From Blastocatellia bacterium (GTDB lineage: Bacteria > Acidobacteriota > Blastocatellia > Chloracidobacteriales > JADJPF01): 62,877 nt of DNA. The stretch is taken from contig JBDIBI010000015.1 of assembly GCA_039812885.1 (NCBI GenBank), forward strand, positions 1-62,877, given 5' to 3'. This document shows, in pieces, positions 257 to 54,773 of this stretch. Both the position numbers and the translations under genes were made by a program. Below the pieces are notes generated by a model, which ran no database searches, was not told the origin of the DNA, and worked only from the letters and a program-made list of their open reading frames with translations. How positions within the stretch are numbered: the stretch's first letter is position 1; the number at the start of each line of letters is the position of its first letter.

Positions 257-1354
257 TTATAAAGCTAGGGCTTCGCCTTTAGCTTTTAAGCCCTTAACTT
301 TATCCTCAACTTTTTTAACTACTTCTGCTGGGAGTGGAGCATAATTAAGATCTTTAGCTAATTTTTGACCATCACTCATTGCCCATTTAATAAATTTAGC
401 CAAAGCTTCAGCTTTAGTTTTGCTGTCCATATCTTGGTAAACAAGTAGGTAGGTGTAGCTAGATATTGGATAAGCTCCATCACCTTCTGCATCGGTAATT
501 GAGGTTCTCATATCATCTGGAAGTTGAGCTACTGTGCCACTAGCTGCCGCAGTAACTGAATCTGGACTAGGAACAACAAACTTTCCAGCTTTGTTTTTTA
601 TAGAGGCAACAGGCATTTTATTTTGTACTGCATAAACTAATTCAGTATAACCAATAGCGCCTTCTACTTGTTTAACTTGACCTGTTACACCTTCGTTACC
701 TTTTCCACCTAAACCTACAGGCCAGTTTACAGAAGTACCTTTACCAACTTTATCTGCCCAAGTTTTACTAACTTTGCTTAAATAATCTACAAATACTGCT
801 GTAGTACCGCTACCATCTGAACGATGTACTACTGTAATTTCTTTATCTGGCAATTTAAGATCTTTATTATCTTCTACAATTTTAGGATCATTCCATTTCT
901 TAATATCCCCTAAGAAAATACCTGCTAGTACATCAGAAGTAAGTTTAAGTTCACCATTTACACTAGGTAAGTTATAAGTTGCTACAACAGCCCCTAAAGT
1001 AGTTGGAATATGAACTATTGGCTTTTTCAAAGTTTTTTGTTGATCATCTGTCATTGGAGCATCTGAAGCACCAAAATCTACTGTTTGCTCAGTAATTTGC
1101 TTGATACCACCACCAGATCCTATTGATTGATAGTCTATTTTAACATTTGGGTTTGCTTTGTTATATTCACTAATCCATTTAGAATAAAGAGGATAAGGAA
1201 ATGTTGCACCTGCTCCTTGTAAGGAAATTGTATCACCTTTTCCAGCATTACCACCATCTGTCTTTGTTCCAGAATCATCTGGCGCACCAGCGCAAGCTGT
1301 CCAAATTAATGAAAAAAGCATCGTTACTAAAACAAGATAAAATTTCTTTGACAT
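257..1354 (-). CDS. pstS: Phosphate ABC transporter substrate-binding protein PstS
   Basis: 365 aa with an N-terminal signal and lipoprotein-like Cys. Carries the motif GAGATFPYPLYSKWISEYNK and a TSDGSGTT-like region typical of the PstS family. Sits divergent from phoU. Confidence 0.85.
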   Translation of the reverse strand: MSKKFYLVLVTMLFSLIWTACAGAPDDSGTKTDGGNAGKGDTISLQGAGATFPYPLYSKWISEYNKANPNVKIDYQSIGSGGGIKQITEQTVDFGASDAPMTDDQQKTLKKPIVHIPTTLGAVVATYNLPSVNGELKLTSDVLAGIFLGDIKKWNDPKIVEDNKDLKLPDKEITVVHRSDGSGTTAVFVDYLSKVSKTWADKVGKGTSVNWPVGLGGKGNEGVTGQVKQVEGAIGYTELVYAVQNKMPVASIKNKAGKFVVPSPDSVTAAASGTVAQLPDDMRTSITDAEGDGAYPISSYTYLLVYQDMDSKTKAEALAKFIKWAMSDGQKLAKDLNYAPLPAEVVKKVEDKVKGLKAKGEALAL

Positions 1355-1434
1355 AAAAACCTTTCTATTTATCTACCTACTTTTATTTGAATTAAGAGTG
1401 CTTTAATTTATTTGTCTGTAGTCTAATGAATGGT

Positions 1435-23538: not shown

Positions 23539-26178
23539 ATGACTGGACATGAAATTAGACAAAAATTTTTAGATTTTTTTGCTTCTAACCAACATCGCAT
23601 TGTTAAAAGCTCTCCTCTTTTACCTGCAAACGACCCTACCCTGCTTTTTGCTAATGCAGGAATGAACCAATTTAAGGATGTATTCTTAGGTTCAGAGTTA
23701 CGTGATTACACTCGCGCAACTACATCTCAAAAGTGTATTCGTGCTGGTGGTAAACATAATGATTTAGAAGAAGTAGGAAAAACTGCTCGTCATCATACTT
23801 TTTTTGAAATGTTAGGCAATTTTTCTTTTGGAGATTATTTTAAAGAAGAAGCCATCGTATTTTCTTGGGATCTACTCCTAAAAGAATTTAAACTCCCATT
23901 AAATAGACTTTGGTTTACAGTCTACAAAGATGATGATGAAGCTTTAGAGCTTTGGAAAAAGGTAGGAGCACCAGCCGATCGGATTTTAAAATTTGCTGAA
24001 AAAGATAATTTTTGGCAAATGGGTGATACTGGCCCTTGTGGCCCTTGTTCAGAAATACACTACTATATGGGCGATGACCTTTCTCTACAACGTGCAGATA
24101 TGGTCAACGGGCCAGGCGACGACATCATGGAAATTTGGAATCTAGTCTTTATGCAATTTAACCGTGATGCAAGCAAAACACTTCACCCTCTACCTAAACC
24201 TTCTGTTGATACAGGAATGGGTTTAGAACGTATCAGTGCTGTACTTCAAGGTGTTAAAAGCAATTATGATACAGATTTAATTAAACCAATCCTTCATTTT
24301 ATAAGTGATCTATGCAAACAAGAATATGTAGCAAATACTCCTGAAGGAATGTCAATGAGAGTACTTGCTGATCATGCTCGTGCTACAGCATTTGCTATTG
24401 CAGATGGGATTTTACCAGGAAACCTTGGGCGCAATTATGTATTACGCAAAATTATGCGTAGAGCTATTTATCATGGCAGCCATAGATTAGGTTTATCAGA
24501 TATTTTCTTCCACAAAATTATAGATTTTGTTACCCATATGATGGGAAATGCTTATCCAGAGCTTTTTACAGCTCGTAATTTTACAGGTCAAATTGTTGAA
24601 GGTGAAGAACGACGTTTCCGCAACACTCTAAAAACTTGTTTACCTAAATTCCATGATTTAGTAGAACGTCATGCTGGTGAAATGCCTCCATATAAAGAAC
24701 TTGCTCGTCTTTATGATACTTTTGGTATGCCTCAAGATTTAATGAAGGTAATGTTAGAGCAACAAAATCATCAATGGTCAGAAGAGGCTTTTGAACAAGC
24801 ATTAGAAGAACTTCAAAAAACAACTATGGTAGCCTGTGCAACTCCAGCACAAGCTAAAACTAAACCTATTTATCAACAACTCTCTGAACGCATTAAGACA
24901 ACTTTTACCGGCTATCAAGGCACAGAACTTCTTGGAGCTAAGGTTGTAGCAATACTAGCTAAAGATCAAGAAATTAACGAGTTAAGTGCAACTACAAGTG
25001 AGGCTGAAGGAGAAGTAATTTTAGACAGAACTCCTTTTTATGCTGAATCTGGTGGTCAAATTGGAGACACAGGAATCTTTGAAAATGAGTCTACTTTAGT
25101 AAAAGTACTTGATACTTATGCTTCTATGCCAGGTCTCTCAATTCACAAAGTAAAAGTTGAAAAAGGCTCTCTAAAAGTAGGGGATGAAGTTGCTGCTTTG
25201 GTTGATGATGAACGCCGTCGCCGCATTATGCTCAATCATACATCTACACATTTGCTACATGCAGCATTAAAGGAAGTGTTAGGACAACACATAAAACAAG
25301 CTGGTAGTCTTGTTGCTCCTGATCGCTTACGATTTGACTTTACACATTATGCAGCACTAACAGATTCAGAAATTGCTGAGTTAGAACGTTTGGTAAATGA
25401 ACAAATCCAACATAATGCACAACTTTCTAAAGAGGAAATGGAGCTAGAAAAAGCTCTTGCTTCAGGTGCAGTAGCATTATTTGGAGAAAAATATTCTAGC
25501 AAAGTTAGAGTTATAAGCGTTCCCGGTTTTAGTACAGAACTTTGTGGCGGAACTCACGTATCAGCAACAGGAGACATTGGTTTATTTAAGATAGTCTCTG
25601 ATAGTTCGGTAGCTGCTGGAATTCGCCGCATTGAAGCAATTACTGGCCCTGCGGCAGTAGAACGCTACCAACAAGCTTATAATTTACTTGATGGTTTATC
25701 TGTAGCCTTCAAATCTAGTTGGAACGATATTCCATCACAAATTGAACGGTTGCAATCTGCGCTTAAAGCGGCAACATCACAAATTGATGGCTTAAAGCTC
25801 AAATTAGCAACTCAATCAGCTTCTAATGCTCTTGAACAAGCTAAAACTGTTGGTAATGTAAAAGTTTTAGCTCAAAAAGTTGAAGATTTAGATCGCAGTG
25901 GAATGCGCCAACTAGCTGATACACTTAGCCAAAAACTTGGTTCAAGTGTAGTTGTTTTAGGCTTGGCAGAAGAAGGTAAAGCAGCACTTTTGGTTAGAGT
26001 ATCTAATGACTTAACCAAGCAGTTTAATGCAGGTAAAATAGTTAACGAATTAGCTACTATAGTTGGAGGAAGAGGTGGTGGAAAACCTGATCTAGCAGAA
26101 GCAGGAGGAAAAGACCCTTCTAAACTTGGGGAAGCTTTAACTGCTAGTTATGAACTTGTAGAAAGAATGTCAAACTAA
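23539..26178 (+). CDS. alaS: Alanine--tRNA ligase AlaS
   Basis: 879 aa. Conserved AlaS N-terminal catalytic motifs (FANAGMNQFK, GDYFKEEAI), editing-domain HxxxH zinc motifs (HTSTHLLHAALK) and a C-terminal DHHA1-like GGRGGGKPDLA. Confidence 0.9.
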   Translation: MTGHEIRQKFLDFFASNQHRIVKSSPLLPANDPTLLFANAGMNQFKDVFLGSELRDYTRATTSQKCIRAGGKHNDLEEVGKTARHHTFFEMLGNFSFGDYFKEEAIVFSWDLLLKEFKLPLNRLWFTVYKDDDEALELWKKVGAPADRILKFAEKDNFWQMGDTGPCGPCSEIHYYMGDDLSLQRADMVNGPGDDIMEIWNLVFMQFNRDASKTLHPLPKPSVDTGMGLERISAVLQGVKSNYDTDLIKPILHFISDLCKQEYVANTPEGMSMRVLADHARATAFAIADGILPGNLGRNYVLRKIMRRAIYHGSHRLGLSDIFFHKIIDFVTHMMGNAYPELFTARNFTGQIVEGEERRFRNTLKTCLPKFHDLVERHAGEMPPYKELARLYDTFGMPQDLMKVMLEQQNHQWSEEAFEQALEELQKTTMVACATPAQAKTKPIYQQLSERIKTTFTGYQGTELLGAKVVAILAKDQEINELSATTSEAEGEVILDRTPFYAESGGQIGDTGIFENESTLVKVLDTYASMPGLSIHKVKVEKGSLKVGDEVAALVDDERRRRIMLNHTSTHLLHAALKEVLGQHIKQAGSLVAPDRLRFDFTHYAALTDSEIAELERLVNEQIQHNAQLSKEEMELEKALASGAVALFGEKYSSKVRVISVPGFSTELCGGTHVSATGDIGLFKIVSDSSVAAGIRRIEAITGPAAVERYQQAYNLLDGLSVAFKSSWNDIPSQIERLQSALKAATSQIDGLKLKLATQSASNALEQAKTVGNVKVLAQKVEDLDRSGMRQLADTLSQKLGSSVVVLGLAEEGKAALLVRVSNDLTKQFNAGKIVNELATIVGGRGGGKPDLAEAGGKDPSKLGEALTASYELVERMSN

Positions 26179-26189
26179 CCCTCAAAAGC

Positions 26190-26526
26190 TCTACTTGATC
26201 AACCTAGGGTTAGTTTAACACTAACTCTAGGTTTCCCACTTAAATAAACCTTCTCTTCAAAATCATAACTAGTCAACTACCTACCCGTAAACGGGTAGGC
26301 TTGAGGGCGTAAAAGCCAACAAGCCCAGTTGAGCAGACTAAGCTTAGAAATAAGCTACGTTACGAAGAGAGTTAAAGAACGCACCCTAGAATGCGAGCCA
26401 GTTCTAGGCTCTGTAACTTCTAAGTTAAACAGACGTAAGGGTATAAAGTCAGTGCCTAGAAGAAATACTGATTCGTAACATTGTCGAGGCAAACATAACC
26501 ATAGAAATATGAGGTTTTTACTAACT
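26190..26526 (+). ncRNA. Candidate omega-RNA of the IscB locus: a structured non-coding region immediately upstream of iscB in the same orientation
   Basis: About 330 nt with no credible ORF, packed with stem-loops. (1) 26202-26232 is a 12-bp stem with one G·U pair. (2) CCTACCCG-TAAA-CGGGTAGG at 26280-26299 is a perfect 8-bp stem. (3) ggctt/aagcc at 26298-26317. (4) AGCTTA-GAAA-TAAGCT at 26341-26356. (5) CCTAGAA(26385-26391)/TTCTAGG(26402-26408). In addition, cctagaag recurs at 26454-26461, giving alternative, pseudoknot-like pairing. Its position relative to iscB matches the known organisation of omega-RNA followed by iscB. Confidence 0.55.
26202..26232 (+). other. Imperfect palindromic hairpin just after the alaS stop: either the alaS terminator or the IS200/605-like left-end subterminal hairpin
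   Basis: ACCTAGGGTTAG-tttaaca-CTAACTCTAGGT gives 12 pairs including one G·U. It is followed by tttccc, which is not a strong U-tract. Confidence 0.4.
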
Positions 26527-27822
26527 ATGCAAAAAGTATTTGTACTAGATACCAAGGGAAAACAACTAGATATGTGTCATCCTGGACAAGCTAGAAGGCT
26601 TTTGAAAGCTGGACAGGCAGCAGTGTATAAGCGTTTTCCTTTTACAATTAAACTTAAACGAGAAGTATGTAAGGCAGACTTACAAAACTATCAACTAAAG
26701 TTAGATCCTGGCAGTAAAAAAACAGGTGTTGCAATTGTTAACCAAGAAACAGGAGAAGTAGTCTTTGCTGCTAAAATAGAACATCGTGGACAAACTATTA
26801 AAGTTAGTTTAGATAATCGTCGTGAAGTTCGTCGTAATAGGCGAAACAGAAAGACTCGTTATCGTAAGTCTAGGTTTCATAATAGAACTCGCTCTAAAGG
26901 TTGGTTAGCACCTTCTCTACTGAGTAGAGTAGCTAATGTAGAAACTTGGGTTAGAAAGCTAATACAGTTGTGCCCAATAAGTGGAATTAGCTTAGAACTT
27001 GTTAAATTTGATACTCAGTTAATGCAAAATGCTGAAATTAAAGGGGTTCAATACCAACAAGGGACTTTAGCTGGTTATGAGCTGCGCGAGTATCTACTGG
27101 AGAAGTACAAGCGTAAATGTGCTTATTGCAAGAAAGAAAATATCCCTTTACAGATAGAGCATATAGTTCCAAAAAGCAGAGGTGGTAGTAATAGAGTGAC
27201 AAACCTAACTTTGGCTTGCGAAAAATGCAACTTAAAGAAAGCTAATAAAACTGCTACAGAATTTGGTTATCCTGAAGTTCAAGCTCAAGCTAAATTACCA
27301 TTAAAAGATGCTGCTGCTGTAAATAGTACAAGATGGGAAATATACAATAGGCTAAAGGGATTTGCTTTGCCAATAGAAACAGGTAGTGGTGGACTAACTA
27401 AGTTTAATCGTGCTAGCCAAAACTTACCTAAGACACATTACATAGATGCAGCATGTGTTGGAATAAGCACACCATTACTAAAACTAGATAAAGTACAAGT
27501 ACTAGAGATAAAAGCTACAGGACAGGGCACTCGCCAAATGTGTAAAGTAGATAAAATAGGATTTCCTCGCACTAGCGCAAAAACAGCAAAGAAGTTTTTT
27601 GGTTTTCAAACAGGAGACATAGTTAAAGCAATTGTTACTAGTGGTAAAAAAATTGGTACTTATATTGGTAAAGTTGCGGTTCGTGCTACGGGCTTTTTTG
27701 CCATTATCACTACTTCTGGCAAGGTCGATTCCATTAAGCATAACTTTTGCAAACTACTCTTTGCTTGTGATGGTTACTCTTATTCTTACTCTATATCAAA
27801 TGGCAATTCCTCCACAGCCTAA
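26509..27822 (+). CDS. iscB: IscB, an OMEGA-system RNA-guided endonuclease (Cas9 ancestor). It has a PLMP-like N-domain, split RuvC, an Arg-rich bridge helix, an HNH zinc finger and a C-terminal TAM-interaction-like domain
   Basis: The 437-aa ORF probably starts in reality at the ATG at 26527 (MQKVFVLD...). N-domain motifs KRFPFTIKL. RuvC-I LKLDPGSKKTGVAIV with Asp66 (nt 26704-26706). Bridge helix RREVRRNRRNRKTRYRKSRFHNRTR. RuvC-II ISLELVKFD with Glu163 (26995-26997). HNH CAYC...IEHIVPKSRGGSNRVTNLTLACEKCN with His218 (27160-27162) and CxxC...CxxC. RuvC-III THYIDAACVG with His310 and Asp313 (27436-27447). The whole order matches characterised IscB proteins such as OgeuIscB. Confidence 0.85.
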   Translation: MRFLLTMQKVFVLDTKGKQLDMCHPGQARRLLKAGQAAVYKRFPFTIKLKREVCKADLQNYQLKLDPGSKKTGVAIVNQETGEVVFAAKIEHRGQTIKVSLDNRREVRRNRRNRKTRYRKSRFHNRTRSKGWLAPSLLSRVANVETWVRKLIQLCPISGISLELVKFDTQLMQNAEIKGVQYQQGTLAGYELREYLLEKYKRKCAYCKKENIPLQIEHIVPKSRGGSNRVTNLTLACEKCNLKKANKTATEFGYPEVQAQAKLPLKDAAAVNSTRWEIYNRLKGFALPIETGSGGLTKFNRASQNLPKTHYIDAACVGISTPLLKLDKVQVLEIKATGQGTRQMCKVDKIGFPRTSAKTAKKFFGFQTGDIVKAIVTSGKKIGTYIGKVAVRATGFFAIITTSGKVDSIKHNFCKLLFACDGYSYSYSISNGNSSTA

Positions 27823-27832
27823 AGTCTGTGGA
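27811..27832 (+). other. Hairpin overlapping the iscB stop codon, a candidate right-end structure of the element or a terminator
   Basis: TCCACAG(27811-27817)-cctaaagt-CTGTGGA(27826-27832) is a perfect 7-bp stem with no U-tract. It lies 25 nt before the kinase-gene ATG. Confidence 0.35.
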
Positions 27833-27856
27833 CTCCTTGCCGAAGATTGTTGAATA

Positions 27857-30800
27857 ATGAGCAATAATATGATGGATCCAATAATTGGGCGCGCATTAGG
27901 GGATTTTCTAGTTAAGGAAAAGCTAGGAGAAGGTGGATTTGGAGCTGTTTATAAAGCAAGTCAAATTACTTTAGACCGTGAAGCTGTAGTTAAAATTCTT
28001 CATACTCGCCATCGTACTGACATAAACATAATAGAACGTTTTAAGCGAGAAGCCCGTCTAGCTTCGCGTTTAGAACATCCATATTGTGCTCATATTTATT
28101 CATTTGGAGCTGAAGAGGATGGATTATTATGGATTGCGATGGAATTAGTTGATGGAACTCCATTAAATGAAATAGTTAAATCCCAAGGCCCATTACCATT
28201 AGAACGCTTTATCCCTTTGTTAGATAAAATTTGTGAAGTTGTTCATACTGCACATGAAACAGGCATAGTTCATCGAGATATTAAACCTGCTAATGTTATG
28301 GTTATTTCTAGAGCTGGACGACTTTTACCTAAACTCCTAGATTTTGGTATTGCTAAGGATCTATCCCTTCAAAATGGCTCATTTGATAAAACTAGTGAAC
28401 TATCTACAGATAAATTACCTGATTTAATAAATGAATTTGATAGCTTAAAAAACACCCTTAGAAAAAACTCTTTGCAACTTGCTGAATCCAAACATCCAAC
28501 ATTATTTGTTAATACTTTGTTAGCTAAAGAAACTGATGAACAAAACCTTGACCTAGCTACAAATAAAATTACTCATCTTGTAAAAACACATGGAATAATG
28601 GGCTCACCTAGCTATATGGCTCCTGAACAGTGGAAAAATGCTGTTACAGCAGATGCTCGTAGTGATATTTATGCCTTAGGAGTTACTGCATATGAACTGC
28701 TTACGGGTAAATTGCCTTTCAAAGGCTCTATGAATACATTGATGAATGCACATCTTAACAAGCCTATTCCAACTTTAGCTACAACATTTGCAGAAAAGTT
28801 TGATCCAATAATTGCTAAAGCTATGGCTAAAAATGCTGAAGATCGCTATCAAACAGCTTTAGAGTTTGCTAAAGATTTCCGTGAAGCAGCTAATTTTACT
28901 CAAGAACAAATAATCCTACCTCATCTAGATGAAATACTTAAAGAAAATTTATTAACCAATGCCCCAAAACCTTTAGCTGATATGGTTGCAAGCCTTGTAG
29001 CGGCTCGCAATGCTTATCAATTTAGAGATAGATTATTTTTGGTGTTGCATGTTTTAATACGGTACATAAGCATATTAACCCTAGCAAGCTATGCAAGTAC
29101 TATTACAAATGAGCAAACTTCTGAGTTAATTACTAAAACAATAGCTAATTTACGTCATAATAGTTTAACTGATTTAGAATGGTTAGAACTTTCGAGAGAA
29201 CTATGCAGACCTTTTGCTAAAAAAAGAGATGCTTTTCCTATCCCAGAACTAATAACTGTATTTTTTGCAATAGATAGTGAACATCTTAACTTTCTAAATG
29301 AAACATTTCTTAAGCTCTTGCAAATGCAAGATGAAATAAATTCCAATGCTTCACTAAAAGAAGAGCAGCTAGTAACTTTACTGGCTCATTTCTTAACTAA
29401 ACTTACTTATTTATTAAAAGCTACAGCTTGGTTAAGTGATTATTACTTAGTACTTCCAGAAGCCAATAGAGCAACTAAATGGATGGGAATAGCTAAAGAG
29501 ATAAGTTCAATAAGTTTAAAAACCAGCAATATAACTAACCAAAAGGCTATTTTGGTAGATGCACAAGGGCATTTTGTCTTAACACTTTGGCCATTAATAG
29601 AAATAGTTGAACCTACCCCAGGAATGTCATTAGAAGTTTTTCTACTAGAGCGCAAAGGTCGTAATTCAGCAAAATTAGTTTCATTTCCTGATGGATTTGA
29701 AATAGAAACTGAAGCTCCTTGGGACTGGTTAAAACAACACTTTATTACAGATGAAGAAAAGGCAAAAACAGCAAAGCTGATAGAAAAATCTCCATATCTA
29801 GGTTTAGCTACCTTTTCAGCAAAAGACTCAAATTTGTTTTTTGGGCGAGAAAAAGAAACAGAAAACTTTCTAAATCGTTTGCGTATTCAACCATTACTTG
29901 CAGTTGTAGGGCCATCAGGAGCAGGAAAAAGTTCTTTTATTCAAGCTGGTGTTGTGGCTGGGCTTGATGAGAATTGGCAAGTTATAACAGTTCGCCCTGG
30001 ACTTTCCCCTATTGCTACATTAGCTAGCAAACTTTCAAAAGTAGGTATTGAGCTAGTAGATTTAAAAATTAAATTACAAAAAGATATAAATTTCCTAGGT
30101 AATAGCTTACGTCAATTTGCTAGTGAGCAAAATAGTCAAATCTTATTAATAATAGATCAATTTGAAGAAATCCTAACACTCTGTTTAGACAAGCAGGAAC
30201 AACAACTCTATGTAGAAGCAATAGTTTTAGCCGCACGCTCTGAAGAAGATCCTATTAGAGTTGTACTAACAATGAGAGATGATTTTTTGGTAAAAGCTAA
30301 AAAGCTAAAAGCTCTAAAAGATCGTCTTAACCAAGCATTAGAAATACTCACAACTCCAGCATCTACAGAACTTATTAAAATCCTTACAGAACCAGCTAGA
30401 CAAGCAGGCTATGAGTTTGAAGATCAAGAACTTCCTGTAGAAATTGTAAATGAAGTTACAGAACAAACTAGTGCCTTACCATTACTAGCATTTACAGCAG
30501 CAAAACTTTGGCAACAACGAGACAAAGAGTTTAAGCAACTCAGGCGCAGAAGTTATGAAGCAATGGGAGGTGTAGGAGGTGCATTAGCACGTCATGCTGA
30601 AAGTATGTTGTTGCAAATGACTCATATAGAACAATCTCTTGTTCGTGAAGCATTTCGTCATTTGGTCACAAGTGAAGGAACAAGAGCCGTTCTAACTCGT
30701 CCAGAGATATTGCAATTGTTAGGCAAAAGTGGCGAAAGTGAAGCTGTATTAGAAAAATTAATTTCCGCTAGGCTTCTAGTTGCAACTGAAGGAGAAAAAG

Positions 30801-33193
30801 GAGTTGATAGAATTGAAATTGTTCATGAAGCATTGCTCTCAGCTTGGCCACGGTTAATCAAATGGCAACAAGAAGATGCAGAAGGTGTACGTCTTAGAGA
30901 TCAACTTCGTTCTGCTGCTAGGCAATGGCAAGAAAAAAACTACTCTAGAAGCTTATTATGGCGAGATGAAGCATTGACAGAATACCAACTTTGGCGAATA
31001 CACTATAAAGGAAAACTTACTGAACTAGAAGAAAGTTTTGCTCAATCTAGCTTATCAGAAGCCAATCGACGCCAATTTATAAGAAGAAGCTTAATCATAA
31101 CAGCAATGGTTGTTTTACTAATAGTTTCTGCTGTGATGTATTATCAAAGACAACAAACACAAGAACAACTCTCACAAACTTTAGTACTTTATGAAGAACA
31201 AGCCCGAAAGGAAATACTAAAACAAAACTATGAAGGGGCTGCTGTTTACCTTAATGAAGCATACTTAAAAGGAGCAAATAGTCTAGCATTAAGGTATATG
31301 TTAGCTGTAGCTTTGGCAAAAGTAGAAAATCATCCCCCTATTACCCTATCAAATCATACAGATACAATAACCACAGCGACTTTTAACCCAACTGATGATT
31401 TAGTAGCAACAGCTAGCAAAGATAAAACAGCTAGAATCTGGCAAGTAGCTGATGGAAAAGAGCTTTTTACTCTCAAAGGCCATCAAGATGTAGTAGTATC
31501 TACTAGCTTTAGCCCTGATGGAAAATTACTACTCACTGCAAGTCTAGATAAAACGGCTAAGCTTTGGAAAGTAGCAGATGGAACTCTGATAACAACACTT
31601 ATTGGACACAGTGATGCTTTAAGAACTGCCCAATTTAGCCCTGATGGACAACAAATACTAACAACAAGTTATGATCATACAGCCAAAATTTGGGATACTA
31701 ATACAGGGAAGCTCTTAAATACGCTACAAGGACATCAAGCAACTATTTATGCAGCTTGTTATAGTAAAACTGGAAAATTAATAGCTACAGCTTCTGCTGA
31801 TAAAATAGTTAGTCTTTGGGACAGCAACAGCGGAGAGTTAAAAACAACTTTGAAAGGTCATCAAGCTGCTGTAATAAATGTCTCATTTAGCCCTGATGAA
31901 AAACTACTATTGACAGCCAGCATAGACCAAACAGCACGTATTTGGCAATTATCAGACGGACAACAACTTAATATTTTATCTAGCCATCAATCAGCAATAA
32001 CAAATAGTAAATTTAGTCCTGATGGAAAAGAAGTTTTAATTATGTGCAGTGATGGAAAGAGCTATCTTTGGGAAACAGCGACAGGCAAATTGCATGCAAC
32101 TTTAGAAGGTCATCAAGCTGACATAGTAAGTGGGGATTTCAGTAAAGATGGAAAACTAATAGTTACAACATCTTATGACAAAACCGTTAGAGTATGGGAA
32201 AGAGCTACAGGTAAATTTCTGGTAGCATTTGCAGAACATGAAGCATCAGTATTAAGTGGAATATTTTCTAATAAATGTGACAAAATTCTCAGTACCAGTG
32301 AAGACAAAACTGCCAAGATTTGGCCGCTAGTAGTAGAAACTAGATCCCCTATGGAAATAAATACCTTGGTTAAAGCTAAAGTTCCGATTTATTTAAAAGA
32401 AGGAAGACTTATAAACCCACAACTTCCTGTAAAGAAAGTAGAAACACCTAACCCCCAAAAAGAAGAAACCCCTCCTGAAAACCTTTATATAGAAGATTTA
32501 GGAAATAGTGTAAAAATAGAAATGGTGAAAATAAAAGCAGGTGAATTTATGATGGGTTCACCCTCTACATCAAAAGAGCATAATAATAATGAAACTTTAC
32601 ATAAAGTAACAATATCAAAAAGTTTTTATATGGGAAGATATGAAGTAACACAAGCTCAATGGAAAGTTGTAGCATCATTACCATCAATAAATATGTCTTT
32701 AAGTTCAGATACTTCACAAAATAAAGGAGATAATCTACCGGTAGAAAATATAACTTGGGATGAAGCCATGGAATTTTGCGCTAGATTATCAAAAGTGACA
32801 GGAAAACATTATAGTTTACCTACAGAATCACAATGGGAGTATGCAGCTAGGGCAGGAAATAGTAATGAATATCCAGAAAATTTAGATGAAATAAGTTGGT
32901 ATAATAAAAACTCTGAAGGTAAAAGCCATCCAGTAGGCCAGAAAAAAGCAAATTCCTGGGGATTATACGATATGTATGGAAATGTATTTGAATGGTGCTT
33001 AGATTTGTATGGAAATTATCCAACCACTCCTTCAGTAGATCCAATTGGAGCAGTTTCAGGAACAAATCATGTTCTTCGTGGTTCTGGTTATAATACCTAT
33101 GTAGCGGGTTCTCGACCAGCAGATCGCAGTAATGCTGTACCTAGCTATCATATAAGTTATCTAGGGTTTCGCCTAGTTTTAAACAGCGAATAA
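27857..33193 (+). CDS. Giant multidomain signalling protein of 1778 aa: Hanks-type Ser/Thr kinase, STAND/NACHT-like P-loop NTPase, a single TM helix, TPR-like helices, an eight-blade WD40 propeller and a C-terminal formylglycine-generating-enzyme (FGE-sulfatase/SUMF1) domain
   Basis: Kinase: GEGGFGAVYKA, HRDIKPANVM, DFGIAK, GSPSYMAPE. NTPase: Walker A VVGPSGAGKSS, Walker B LLIIDQFEEI. Transmembrane helix: LIITAMVVLLIVSAVMYY (about nt 31090-31140). WD40: eight units of GH...WD. FGE: WEYAARAG, GLYDMYGNVFEWCLD, RGSGY. Confidence 0.8.
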   Translation: MSNNMMDPIIGRALGDFLVKEKLGEGGFGAVYKASQITLDREAVVKILHTRHRTDINIIERFKREARLASRLEHPYCAHIYSFGAEEDGLLWIAMELVDGTPLNEIVKSQGPLPLERFIPLLDKICEVVHTAHETGIVHRDIKPANVMVISRAGRLLPKLLDFGIAKDLSLQNGSFDKTSELSTDKLPDLINEFDSLKNTLRKNSLQLAESKHPTLFVNTLLAKETDEQNLDLATNKITHLVKTHGIMGSPSYMAPEQWKNAVTADARSDIYALGVTAYELLTGKLPFKGSMNTLMNAHLNKPIPTLATTFAEKFDPIIAKAMAKNAEDRYQTALEFAKDFREAANFTQEQIILPHLDEILKENLLTNAPKPLADMVASLVAARNAYQFRDRLFLVLHVLIRYISILTLASYASTITNEQTSELITKTIANLRHNSLTDLEWLELSRELCRPFAKKRDAFPIPELITVFFAIDSEHLNFLNETFLKLLQMQDEINSNASLKEEQLVTLLAHFLTKLTYLLKATAWLSDYYLVLPEANRATKWMGIAKEISSISLKTSNITNQKAILVDAQGHFVLTLWPLIEIVEPTPGMSLEVFLLERKGRNSAKLVSFPDGFEIETEAPWDWLKQHFITDEEKAKTAKLIEKSPYLGLATFSAKDSNLFFGREKETENFLNRLRIQPLLAVVGPSGAGKSSFIQAGVVAGLDENWQVITVRPGLSPIATLASKLSKVGIELVDLKIKLQKDINFLGNSLRQFASEQNSQILLIIDQFEEILTLCLDKQEQQLYVEAIVLAARSEEDPIRVVLTMRDDFLVKAKKLKALKDRLNQALEILTTPASTELIKILTEPARQAGYEFEDQELPVEIVNEVTEQTSALPLLAFTAAKLWQQRDKEFKQLRRRSYEAMGGVGGALARHAESMLLQMTHIEQSLVREAFRHLVTSEGTRAVLTRPEILQLLGKSGESEAVLEKLISARLLVATEGEKGVDRIEIVHEALLSAWPRLIKWQQEDAEGVRLRDQLRSAARQWQEKNYSRSLLWRDEALTEYQLWRIHYKGKLTELEESFAQSSLSEANRRQFIRRSLIITAMVVLLIVSAVMYYQRQQTQEQLSQTLVLYEEQARKEILKQNYEGAAVYLNEAYLKGANSLALRYMLAVALAKVENHPPITLSNHTDTITTATFNPTDDLVATASKDKTARIWQVADGKELFTLKGHQDVVVSTSFSPDGKLLLTASLDKTAKLWKVADGTLITTLIGHSDALRTAQFSPDGQQILTTSYDHTAKIWDTNTGKLLNTLQGHQATIYAACYSKTGKLIATASADKIVSLWDSNSGELKTTLKGHQAAVINVSFSPDEKLLLTASIDQTARIWQLSDGQQLNILSSHQSAITNSKFSPDGKEVLIMCSDGKSYLWETATGKLHATLEGHQADIVSGDFSKDGKLIVTTSYDKTVRVWERATGKFLVAFAEHEASVLSGIFSNKCDKILSTSEDKTAKIWPLVVETRSPMEINTLVKAKVPIYLKEGRLINPQLPVKKVETPNPQKEETPPENLYIEDLGNSVKIEMVKIKAGEFMMGSPSTSKEHNNNETLHKVTISKSFYMGRYEVTQAQWKVVASLPSINMSLSSDTSQNKGDNLPVENITWDEAMEFCARLSKVTGKHYSLPTESQWEYAARAGNSNEYPENLDEISWYNKNSEGKSHPVGQKKANSWGLYDMYGNVFEWCLDLYGNYPTTPSVDPIGAVSGTNHVLRGSGYNTYVAGSRPADRSNAVPSYHISYLGFRLVLNSE

Positions 33194-53612: not shown

Positions 53613-54773
53613 TTAATGAAAAGTATCTCCTAACTTCTTTTCTAACAATAATTTTTCCATCATTAATCCAGCTTGGCTAATTAAAATTTCTAACTCATCC
53701 AAACTACCTATCCCGCGATCACCTGGATAATTATCTCCATATAAAATGACTCTAGCTTTATTTTCAACTACTAGAGGAATTCCAAAAGCTGTCAAACTTA
53801 AACCTTCTCCACCCATTTGCTTAACAATTTCACGATCATAACTATTAGAATCTAAAGGAGCAATCTGAGTTTTACAAGTTTTAACAACTCTACTTAAAAG
53901 TGAAGGTTGTTCTAAATTAATTACGATGCTGTTATCAGTTGATACACTATCAGCAGACAGTCCAAATTGACCTAAACCCTCCACTTCAAACTCTTTTACT
54001 AAGAAAAGTACCCCTCGGCTACAAACCTCACTAGCAAGTCTCATAATTAACAACGTCACTTCCCCTTGAAATGACTGTTGTTTTAACTCTTCCAACAAGT
54101 ATTTTAAGTGTAATATAGCTTTTTCGGCAGAATTTATACTTTCTAAATCATCCCTAGATCGATTTGCTTCAACATAATCATCTAATTCTTTTAATAAATC
54201 TTCACTACTAGTAGGTGGGGGAGGTAGAGTTTTTTTAATTTCTGGTAAAGTACCATCTCGACGTTTTTCATCTAGTAGTTTGGTAGCTTCTAAAATTAAT
54301 TCATCTATATTTAAGCCTTCTGTATAAACATAATCCTGTGTAATATAAGGTAAGCCTCTACCTATAGGAATAGCATTTAGTTTAATTTCAAAAGTGCCTC
54401 GCTTCCAAGATAACAATTCTGCTATAGAACTTTGAATCTGGCTTTTTATAGCTTTTAATAAATAATCCCTGCTTATTTTACCTTTTTCTACCAAAATTGA
54501 ACCAATAAGCCTAGGTTTGGGCATGGAGTTTTGAATTTCTAAAGCTTCTTCCATTTCTTCATAAGTAATTATTTTATCTTGCACCAAAATTTCGCCTAAA
54601 GAGTAAAGTATAGAATCTGTACTAGCTTGTACTATTTTGCCACGAATAAAAACCAACATCCCTCTTTGACCCTGATCTCCACGCAAAATTAACGTACCTG
54701 TTTTACAACTTAACGCTAAAATCTGTAGAATGTCGGTAAGCGGAAAATCGCTTAACTGTCCAGTTAACTCCAT
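53613..54773 (-). CDS. DUF4388-domain protein (PATAN-like N-terminal domain), hypothetical regulator
   Basis: The N-terminal GQLSDFPLTDILQILALSCKTGTLIL is the hallmark of DUF4388. Confidence 0.55.
   Translation of the reverse strand: MELTGQLSDFPLTDILQILALSCKTGTLILRGDQGQRGMLVFIRGKIVQASTDSILYSLGEILVQDKIITYEEMEEALEIQNSMPKPRLIGSILVEKGKISRDYLLKAIKSQIQSSIAELLSWKRGTFEIKLNAIPIGRGLPYITQDYVYTEGLNIDELILEATKLLDEKRRDGTLPEIKKTLPPPPTSSEDLLKELDDYVEANRSRDDLESINSAEKAILHLKYLLEELKQQSFQGEVTLLIMRLASEVCSRGVLFLVKEFEVEGLGQFGLSADSVSTDNSIVINLEQPSLLSRVVKTCKTQIAPLDSNSYDREIVKQMGGEGLSLTAFGIPLVVENKARVILYGDNYPGDRGIGSLDELEILISQAGLMMEKLLLEKKLGDTFH

Follow-up and report, generated by a model that had tools for sequence, protein, structure and literature searches.

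A HEARO family RNA, the predicted guide scaffold of IscB, lies directly upstream of an apparently intact iscB gene in a Blastocatellia bacterium

The window analysed here is a stretch of 62,877 nt from a Blastocatellia bacterium, a source genome with a low GC content (34%). The element described below sits between alaS and a gene encoding a kinase-nSTAND-WD40-FGE protein, no more than 10 nt before the latter's start codon; alaS is co-oriented, with its stop at 26178, and ends 93 nt upstream of the element. A scan of the whole window with Rfam 15 gave one match only above a gathering score, that of HEARO (RF02033) at 26272-26499 on the plus strand (136.4 bits, with the gathering score at 83, and E = 3e-28), which takes in the model at full length (positions 1-211 of 211) and ends 27 nt before the ATG of an iscB gene (26527) in the same orientation. 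SCARNA3, which appeared inside iscB at 22.4 bits against a gathering score of 47, was set aside as a chance match. An earlier note on this DNA, made from the letters alone, had proposed an IscB omega-RNA upstream of iscB across 26190-26526 and had named a covariance model as one way to check it. The full-length match well above the gathering score, together with the IscB reading frame and abundant covariation in homologous loci, bears this out for the scaffold, while the 5′ 82 nt of that interval (26190-26271) are host flank and guide and not scaffold. The features of the locus are as follows.

26190-26255, plus strand: host flank, the alaS 3′ region with a 13-bp hairpin, outside the scaffold
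26256-26271, plus strand: putative guide TTCAAAATCATAACTA, about 16 nt, host DNA directly outside the transposon end
26272-26499, plus strand: predicted HEARO/IscB omega-RNA scaffold (Rfam RF02033; 55 of 73 pairs changed on both sides)
26272-26333, plus strand: guide-adaptor domain (cmscan structure; helix 1, paired in 91% and compensatory in 5 of 7 pairs)
26336-26340, plus strand: 5′ strand of the nexus stem, GACUA, with its partner UUGUC at 26481-26485 (cmscan; helix 6, 4 of 5 pairs compensatory; independently by RNAalifold)
26341-26356, plus strand: hairpin AGCUUA-GAAA-UAAGCU (cmscan structure; helices 7 and 8)
26359-26479, plus strand: central stem, 26359-64 with 26474-79 and 26370-74 with 26469-73, enclosing two internal hairpins (cmscan; helices 9-11)
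26381-26414, plus strand: nexus-pseudoknot hairpin CCUAGAAU/GUUCUAGG, 26385-92 with 26401-08 (helices 12 and 13, 95-100% paired, 8 of 10 pairs compensatory)
26417-26462, plus strand: second long hairpin, CUUCUAAGU at 26417-25 with GCCUAGAAG at 26454-62 and an inner stem of 26429-37 with 26444-53 (cmscan)
26488-26490, plus strand: predicted 3′ strand of the pseudoknot, GGC, with its partner GCC at 26397-99 (helix 14, 93.9% paired in 22 sequences)
26500-26511, plus strand: terminal hairpin CAUA-GAAA-UAUG, past the 3′ end of RF02033 and just before or overlapping the Shine-Dalgarno sequence
26511-26514, plus strand: Shine-Dalgarno sequence GAGG of iscB, conserved in the window, L081, L082 and L083
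26527-27822, plus strand: iscB, 431 aa, apparently intact (Pfam, NCBIfam and PDB matches)
27802-27841, no strand assigned: interrupted palindrome GGCAA..TCCACAG / CTGTGGA..TTGCC, spanning the iscB stop codon
27850-27854, plus strand: candidate TAM TTGAA in iscB orientation, the position-equivalent motif of the window in the alignment with L082 and L128

The protein is readily recognised. NCBIfam NF040563 (guided_IscB, an equivalog for RNA-guided endonuclease IscB) is matched at 441.6 bits against a cut-off of 175, Pfam gives RRXRR (229.7 bits) and HNH domains, and the best matches among solved structures are IscB proteins, OgeuIscB among them. All five catalytic residues are present, namely RuvC-I D60, RuvC-II E158, HNH H212 and RuvC-III H304 and D307, and these align with D61, E193, H247, H340 and D343 of OgeuIscB, the catalytic residues named by Kato et al. 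(PMC9640706). The start codon is ATG 26527, which is conserved in relatives; an upstream ATG at 26509 is not.

The RNA family is likewise an established one. HEARO has been known since 2009, and its explanation as the IscB omega-RNA with a role in homing dates from 2021-2023. The original description is reportedly that of Weinberg and colleagues in 2009 (in Nature 462:656), and OMEGA systems, with HEARO as the IscB omega-RNA, are said to go back to Altae-Tran and colleagues in 2021. A paper of 2010 by Weinberg (PMC2864571) does not mention HEARO. That HEARO serves IscB as its omega-RNA guide scaffold was established in later work (Meers et al., 10.1101/2023.03.14.532601; Kato et al., PMC9640706). 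The copy in the window departs from the RF02033 model by few non-canonical pairs, and we identify the structured non-coding stretch at 26272-26499 as a HEARO/omega-RNA, the predicted guide-RNA scaffold of the IscB encoded just downstream. It is an ordinary feature, a standard member of a family that is already known.

Relatives were collected as 160 loci from scans of genome and metagenome collections. In the species-representative genome collection the nearest relatives, nearly all of them cyanobacteria, share at most 59% identity with this IscB, the exceptions being a Planctomycetota MAG with two copies and an archaeal MAG with one. Closest of all are metagenomic sequences (L081, L082 and L083, with 80%, 78% and 68% protein identity). 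In each of 20 diverse loci scanned with Rfam, a full-length HEARO directly precedes iscB and shares its strand. The assembly collection has no record of this exact IscB protein, whichever of the two start codons is taken, so copies within the same genome could not be used to define boundaries.

Folding strength sets the region apart within the window. The 337 nt of 26190-26526 fold at -94 kcal/mol, compared with -70.7 +/- 4.75 for dinucleotide shuffles (z = -4.9), and none of 100 shuffles reached a value as low, an outcome in keeping with the folding check that had been proposed. Among all intergenic gaps of the window of at least 100 nt, the alaS-iscB spacer stands out at z of about -5.2 on either strand, the runner-up being at -2.6, and it is thus the most stem-dense intergenic region, as had been claimed. 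All four stems read from the letters are present: CCTACCCG-TAAA-CGGGTAGG at 26280-26299, AGCTTA-GAAA-TAAGCT at 26341-26356, and CCTAGAA/TTCTAGG at 26385-91 and 26402-08. A G.U-containing hairpin described as 12 bp at 26202-26232 is real; it extends to 13 bp (26201-13 with 26221-33) and holds a single G.T pair. The second CCTAGAAG, placed at 26454-61, in fact lies at 26455-26462.

Comparative evidence came from 22 copies aligned with MAFFT. RNAalifold, run blind on them, returned the outer stem, the two internal hairpins and the long-range nexus stem, and 26 of its 34 pairs have changes on both sides. The Rfam structure of the window copy was then projected onto the same alignment, with partners slid by 1-3 columns and 500 shuffles as controls. 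Of the cells in the projected structure, 80.0% are standard pairs across the 22 sequences, compared with 29-41% after sliding; compensatory changes are found in 55 of the 73 model pairs, and none of the 500 shuffles reaches any of the measures. Covariation in homologous loci, the check that had been named beforehand and whose absence was to count against the proposal, is therefore abundant.

The predicted scaffold opens with the guide adaptor, in which two hairpins (26280-99 and 26300-23) lie inside an outer stem, GUCAACUA/CAGUUGAG (26272-79 with 26326-33). Within the central stem lies the second long hairpin (26417-26462), its helices 15 and 16 being 87-88% paired with 12 of 16 pairs compensatory. 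The first internal hairpin, CCTAGAA/TTCTAGG, carries in its loop the triplet GCC (26397-99), which we assign, from covariation, as the partner of GGC (26488-90), 2 nt 3′ of the nexus stem; these two triplets are the predicted nexus pseudoknot. Across the 22 sequences the two strands read GCC/GGC, GCU/AGC, ACC/GGU and UCU/AGA; column pair 227/366 has UA ten times and CG nine times, and the Planctomycetota and archaeal copies also have AU or UA at the outer pair. The topology matches that of OgeuIscB, in which the loop of the nexus-pseudoknot hairpin (C93-C96) pairs with G155-G158 just 3′ of the nexus stem, in a pseudoknot that is essential for activity (PMC9640706).

A different pseudoknot-like arrangement had been suggested earlier, in which two copies of CCTAGAA compete for one partner. 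This did not hold up: the pairing of TTCTAGG (26402-08) with the second CCTAGAA (26455-61) is 56.5% paired across the 22 sequences, no better than the slid controls (51.5% and 57.5% for partners slid by +1 or +3), and its inner positions are broken in 15-17 of the 22. The second CCTAGAAG instead pairs with a partner of its own, CTTCTAAG at 26418-25, in the cmscan structure, and helix 15 covaries. The likeness of the two CCTAGAA arms, judged from the alignment, is a peculiarity of the subclade of the window copy and does not point to a conserved switch.

The same alignment bears on whether the region is coding, either as a 5′ extension of iscB or as a small ORF. Two such frames exist mechanically, a sense TTG-start ORF of 49 aa (26329-26478) and an antisense ORF of 66 aa (26355-26555). 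The view that no credible ORF covers the region stands, as nothing supports either of them; that the antisense frame was the sole candidate does not, given the sense ORF. Substitutions among the relatives preserve base pairs and not reading frames, which speaks against a 5′ extension of the protein, non-triplet indels are common among them, and the iscB start at 26527 is conserved together with its Shine-Dalgarno sequence, in contrast to the upstream ATG at 26509. We accordingly give a coding explanation next to no credence.

The strand on which the structure acts can also be read from the alignment. Several pairs are U.G in almost every sequence, columns 217/229 in all 22 and columns 253/325 in 21, and as such near-invariant pairs are valid on the plus strand only, they fit an RNA of the plus strand and not a DNA hairpin or an antisense RNA. 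This matters for the reading that the feature belongs to the DNA, that is, a transposon end folded as single-stranded DNA for TnpA, with the RNA fold incidental. Hairpin 26280-99 lies 8 nt inside the transposon end, like the subterminal hairpins of IS200/IS605 elements, it is stable as single-stranded DNA (z = -4.1), and the intergenic region folds about equally on both strands. We nevertheless regard this reading as highly improbable, since the covarying helices, with long-range stems and a pseudoknot among them, span about 240 nt and run far past a transposon end, the opposite strand would have C.A in place of the near-invariant G.U pairs, the covariance-model match is strand-specific, and a homologous RNA has been seen bound to IscB by cryo-EM (PMC9640706). 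By analogy with IS200/IS605 architecture, hairpin 26280-99 may additionally be the subterminal DNA hairpin of the transposon end. The RNA and DNA-end roles can coexist for this hairpin.

Past the region covered by the Rfam model, which is without downstream elements (Meers et al., 10.1101/2023.03.14.532601), a linker (26491-99) leads to the terminal hairpin. This hairpin is compensatory in the closest relatives (CACA/UGUG in L081 and L082, CCUA/UAGG in L083) and a hairpin is predicted here by RNAalifold, helix 18 having weak support among the distant rows of the MAFFT alignment. The structure stops at the Shine-Dalgarno sequence, the 3′ arm of the terminal hairpin overlapping GAGG (26508-14), and the ORF invariably follows the RNA directly, an arrangement that would also suit a cis-regulatory 5′ leader, riboswitch-like or an attenuator, that governs iscB translation and is not a trans-acting guide scaffold. 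Biochemistry and structures, however, assign the HEARO family a guide-scaffold role (10.1101/2023.03.14.532601; PMC9640706), and the combination of a variable 5′ flank with a scaffold of sharp boundary is expected of a guide RNA, so that we hold the leader explanation to be most improbable; a secondary regulatory effect of the scaffold on iscB translation may exist.

The 5′ boundary of the scaffold is indeed sharp. Similarity to L082 and L083 starts exactly at GTCAAC (26272), with none upstream, the 20 columns before 26272 are unconserved in the 22 sequences, and neither G26272 nor T26273 varies. In Scytonema NIES-4073 the two identical copies, L001 and L002, part at the same point, between the equivalents of 26271 and 26272. 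The guide had been thought impossible to identify from a single copy, and it becomes placeable once relatives are aligned: it would occupy 26256-26271, with a length of 16 nt taken from OgeuIscB, whose guide measures 16-17 nt (PMC9640706). According to Meers et al. (10.1101/2023.03.14.532601), the scaffold of the IscB omega-RNA comes from the transposon right end (RE), its guide is encoded outside the element, and transcription, which has to begin outside as well, shows a bias for a co-oriented upstream gene. With a scaffold at the transposon end, a guide outside it and a co-oriented alaS, the present locus matches all three points.

Hairpin 26201-33, in the flank between alaS and the guide, is absent from the relatives, is without a T-tract and was not flagged as a terminator. 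It could hinder read-through. A scan for promoters and terminators gave counts at chance level, with no convincing promoter between the flank hairpin and the guide. A search of the window for guide targets with up to 3 mismatches gave 7 matches where 3.4 are expected, a number equalled by 7 of 100 shuffles, so that no secondary target in the window is supported; the best match elsewhere in the window (53829-44) has 2 mismatches, is followed by TTAGAA and lies within an ORF.

At the other end, similarity to the relatives continues past the iscB stop and fades after GAAGAT (27847). The palindrome at 27802-41, which is dissimilar to hairpin 26280-99, has compensatory changes in both stem tiers in L082 (GGCGC..CTCGGC / GCCGAG..GCGCC) and keeps the same shape in L083, and it probably marks the far transposon end, where it may be recognised by TnpA. 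The far boundary of the element, as the alignments suggest, would fall somewhere within 27847-27856. The TAM is likely to be TTGAA at 27850-54; ATGA, which also occurs at 27857-60 as the start codon of the next gene, is an alternative candidate. Among multi-copy relatives, over 20 pairs have ATGA(A) at the end of the sequence they share, and these ends fit a TCAT-type TAM read in iscB orientation, Geobacillus elements using TTCAT (Meers et al., 10.1101/2023.03.14.532601). The element of L001 and L002 has about 150 nt more after iscB than that of the window, and for this reason it gives the terminal ATGA motif only and not the far boundary of the window element.

The element leaves no room for a TnpA gene, as iscB fills it, and no Y1_Tnp domain was found among the small ORFs of the window that were tested. 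The 62.9-kb window holds one copy of the element, and no further copies of the element end or of the alaS-flank hairpin. These observations lend some plausibility to an inactive relic, that is, a member of the HEARO/IscB family that no longer guides or cleaves and persists as the fossil of an insertion, flanked by alaS and the kinase-STAND gene. The single copy in 62.9 kb, the lack of TnpA among the tested ORFs, an exact protein not on record elsewhere with a closest relative only 80% identical, and the hairpin between alaS and the guide could all be taken in this sense, as could the PLMP motif, which reads QLDM in this IscB with both prolines lost; mutations of PLMP lower the activity of OgeuIscB (PMC9640706). 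Against it, the ORF is uninterrupted and keeps its five catalytic residues, the RNA fits the whole model with few non-canonical pairs, and QLDM is kept in four diverged relatives, which makes it a trait of the clade and not decay. Absence of TnpA is moreover the norm, tnpA being found near iscB in only about 1.5% of cases (Meers et al., 10.1101/2023.03.14.532601). On balance we consider a relic unlikely, though it deserves more weight than the other alternatives raised here.

We are highly confident that the region holds the HEARO omega-RNA of an element which is non-autonomous, probably of IS200/IS605 type, and codes for the RNA-guided nuclease IscB. Modelled on published relatives, transcription of the omega-RNA would have to begin outside the element, read-through from the co-oriented alaS being the most plausible source, and would run through about 16 nt of host flank (the guide, 26256-71) into the scaffold from 26272 to about 26511. 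The scaffold would fold into the guide adaptor, nexus stem, central stem, two internal hairpins, 3-bp pseudoknot and terminal hairpin. IscB would bind it to form the RNP and cleave guide-matching DNA wherever the TAM follows. By construction, the only natural target would be the empty, scar-free donor joint left by excision, TTCAAAATCATAACTA followed by TTGAA; after loss of the element the empty alaS-kinase junction is expected to read ...TCATAACTA/TTGAATAATG... (the stroke marks the joint). Cleavage of the donor joint could then lead to re-copying of the element by recombination, in the sense of homing, or retention.

A domesticated unit would differ from this in its purpose, IscB and its omega-RNA serving as a fixed-guide RNP, or as a structured RNA, in a host function and not in transposon homing. 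Such a reading, which we judge very unlikely, rests on a single TnpA-less copy that is fed by alaS, sits next to the start of a STAND kinase gene and has lost the PLMP prolines. Were it to apply, control of the expression of the downstream STAND kinase or guarding of the locus would be examples of such a function.

Compared with known systems, the homing element proposed here is conventional. With HEARO RF02033 it shares the full-length model match, the co-oriented position upstream, the variable 5′ guide flank, covarying helices and the nexus pseudoknot, and it differs in nothing essential, the window copy having a short terminal hairpin of 4 bp past the Rfam model, and closest relatives of only 68-80% protein identity. 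The OgeuIscB omega-RNA (7XHT, 7UTN; PMC9640706) has guide, guide adaptor, nexus stem and central stem in the same order, a hairpin loop that pairs with bases 3′ of the nexus stem, and a single-stranded linker that precedes the terminal hairpin or hairpins, and the proteins have the catalytic D/E/H/H/D in common. The guide adaptor, however, is three-way here (an outer stem and two hairpins) and a single 14-bp hairpin in OgeuIscB, the pseudoknot appears to be of 3 bp and not 4 bp, there is one short terminal hairpin where OgeuIscB has two, and the protein has 431 aa and QLDM as opposed to 496 aa and PLMP.

ISGst5/GstIscB of Geobacillus stearothermophilus (10.1101/2023.03.14.532601) offers a parallel at the level of the element, being non-autonomous and of IS200/IS605 type, as the window element probably is, with an RE-bounded scaffold, a guide outside, a co-oriented upstream host gene and, as a candidate in the family of the window copy, an A/T-rich TCAT-type TAM (TTCAT there, ATGA in iscB orientation in this family). 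The window copy, by contrast, is the single one in the available window and has no cognate TnpA among the tested ORFs, and its equivalent position reads TTGA(A) and not ATGA(A). The omega-RNA of TnpB (reRNA, IS605/IS607) also combines a transposon-end scaffold with a guide from the flank, and the same homing logic has been proposed for it; it lies, however, at the 3′ end of tnpB, carries its guide at the 3′ side, is transcribed from inside the element and has an unrelated fold and RNA family, and its nuclease is RuvC-only.

The significance of the locus lies mostly in correct annotation, and it opens no new biological question. It provides a dissected example, covering the putative guide, the scaffold, the pseudoknot, the ends of the element and a candidate TAM, from a genome of low GC content (34%), and the compact IscB of 431 aa with its defined scaffold of about 240 nt could join panels of candidate orthologues for genome editing. 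As the first reading showed, an IscB omega-RNA can be recognised from raw sequence alone.

Over the end of iscB itself lies the probable far-end hairpin of the element, an interrupted palindrome that spans the stop codon and is closely followed by the next gene:

27802-27841: interrupted palindrome, GGCAA..TCCACAG / CTGTGGA..TTGCC, with the iscB stop codon inside its span
27857-33193: gene for a 1778-aa protein with a Ser/Thr kinase, an nSTAND1 NTPase, WD40 propellers and a C-terminal FGE-sulfatase domain

Two of the closest relatives, both metagenomic, bear on this palindrome: L082 carries compensatory changes in both tiers relative to the window, and L083 has a palindrome of the same shape. 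The palindrome in the window probably forms the LE-type hairpin at the far end of the IS element, and the last ~7 iscB codons would therefore be encoded by the transposon end. In another close relative, L081 (about 1440-1470), and in L121, which has the same sequence, similarity breaks off halfway through this palindrome, after CCATAAAT; the element end appears to be truncated there or to have other sequence in its place.

Among relatives present in multiple copies, the sequence shared 3' of iscB ends at ATGA(A) in more than 20 pairs (loci including L015, L024, L028, L029, L033-L036, L082, L093, L095, L100, L104 and L128, among others), making ATGA(A) a candidate for a family-wide TAM. Within 27847-27860 of the window, TTGAA stands at the equivalent place, and ATGA occurs where the next gene starts; the element would therefore end no more than 10 nt from that start codon. 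The IscB insertion has displaced the native 5' region of this kinase/nSTAND1 gene.

Outside its own site, the inferred guide matches the window best at 53829-53844, with two mismatches (positions 11-12, counted from the TAM side); TTAGAA follows this match, which lies within an ORF on the reverse strand (53613-54773). The number of guide matches in the window with up to three mismatches is within chance. Between the presumed source of transcription, the host gene alaS, and the guide sits one further structure:

26201-26233: hairpin 23 nt 3' of the alaS stop; its 13-bp stem includes one G.T pair, and its loop is 7 nt long

This hairpin is the sole instance in the window, is absent from the relatives, and is not a canonical terminator because it is not accompanied by a T-tract.

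The window as a whole has 34% G+C, while almost all of the IscB proteins closest to this one in species-representative genomes come from cyanobacteria. With 38% G+C, the element is slightly above the window average and equal to alaS. Locus L007, of Aetokthonos hydrillicola, also contains a match to the nitrogen stress-induced sRNA NsiR1 (1332-1383, reverse strand), ~1.3 kb upstream of its HEARO/iscB copy; this match has no relation to the omega-RNA finding.

The PLMP motif gives the N-terminal domain of IscB its name. At its position the cyanobacterial relatives have PLDP or PLNP, and the copies from Planctomycetota and archaea have PLMP itself; the window protein reads QLDM at residues 13-16 (26563-26574), as do L081-L083, so that both prolines are gone in this subclade.
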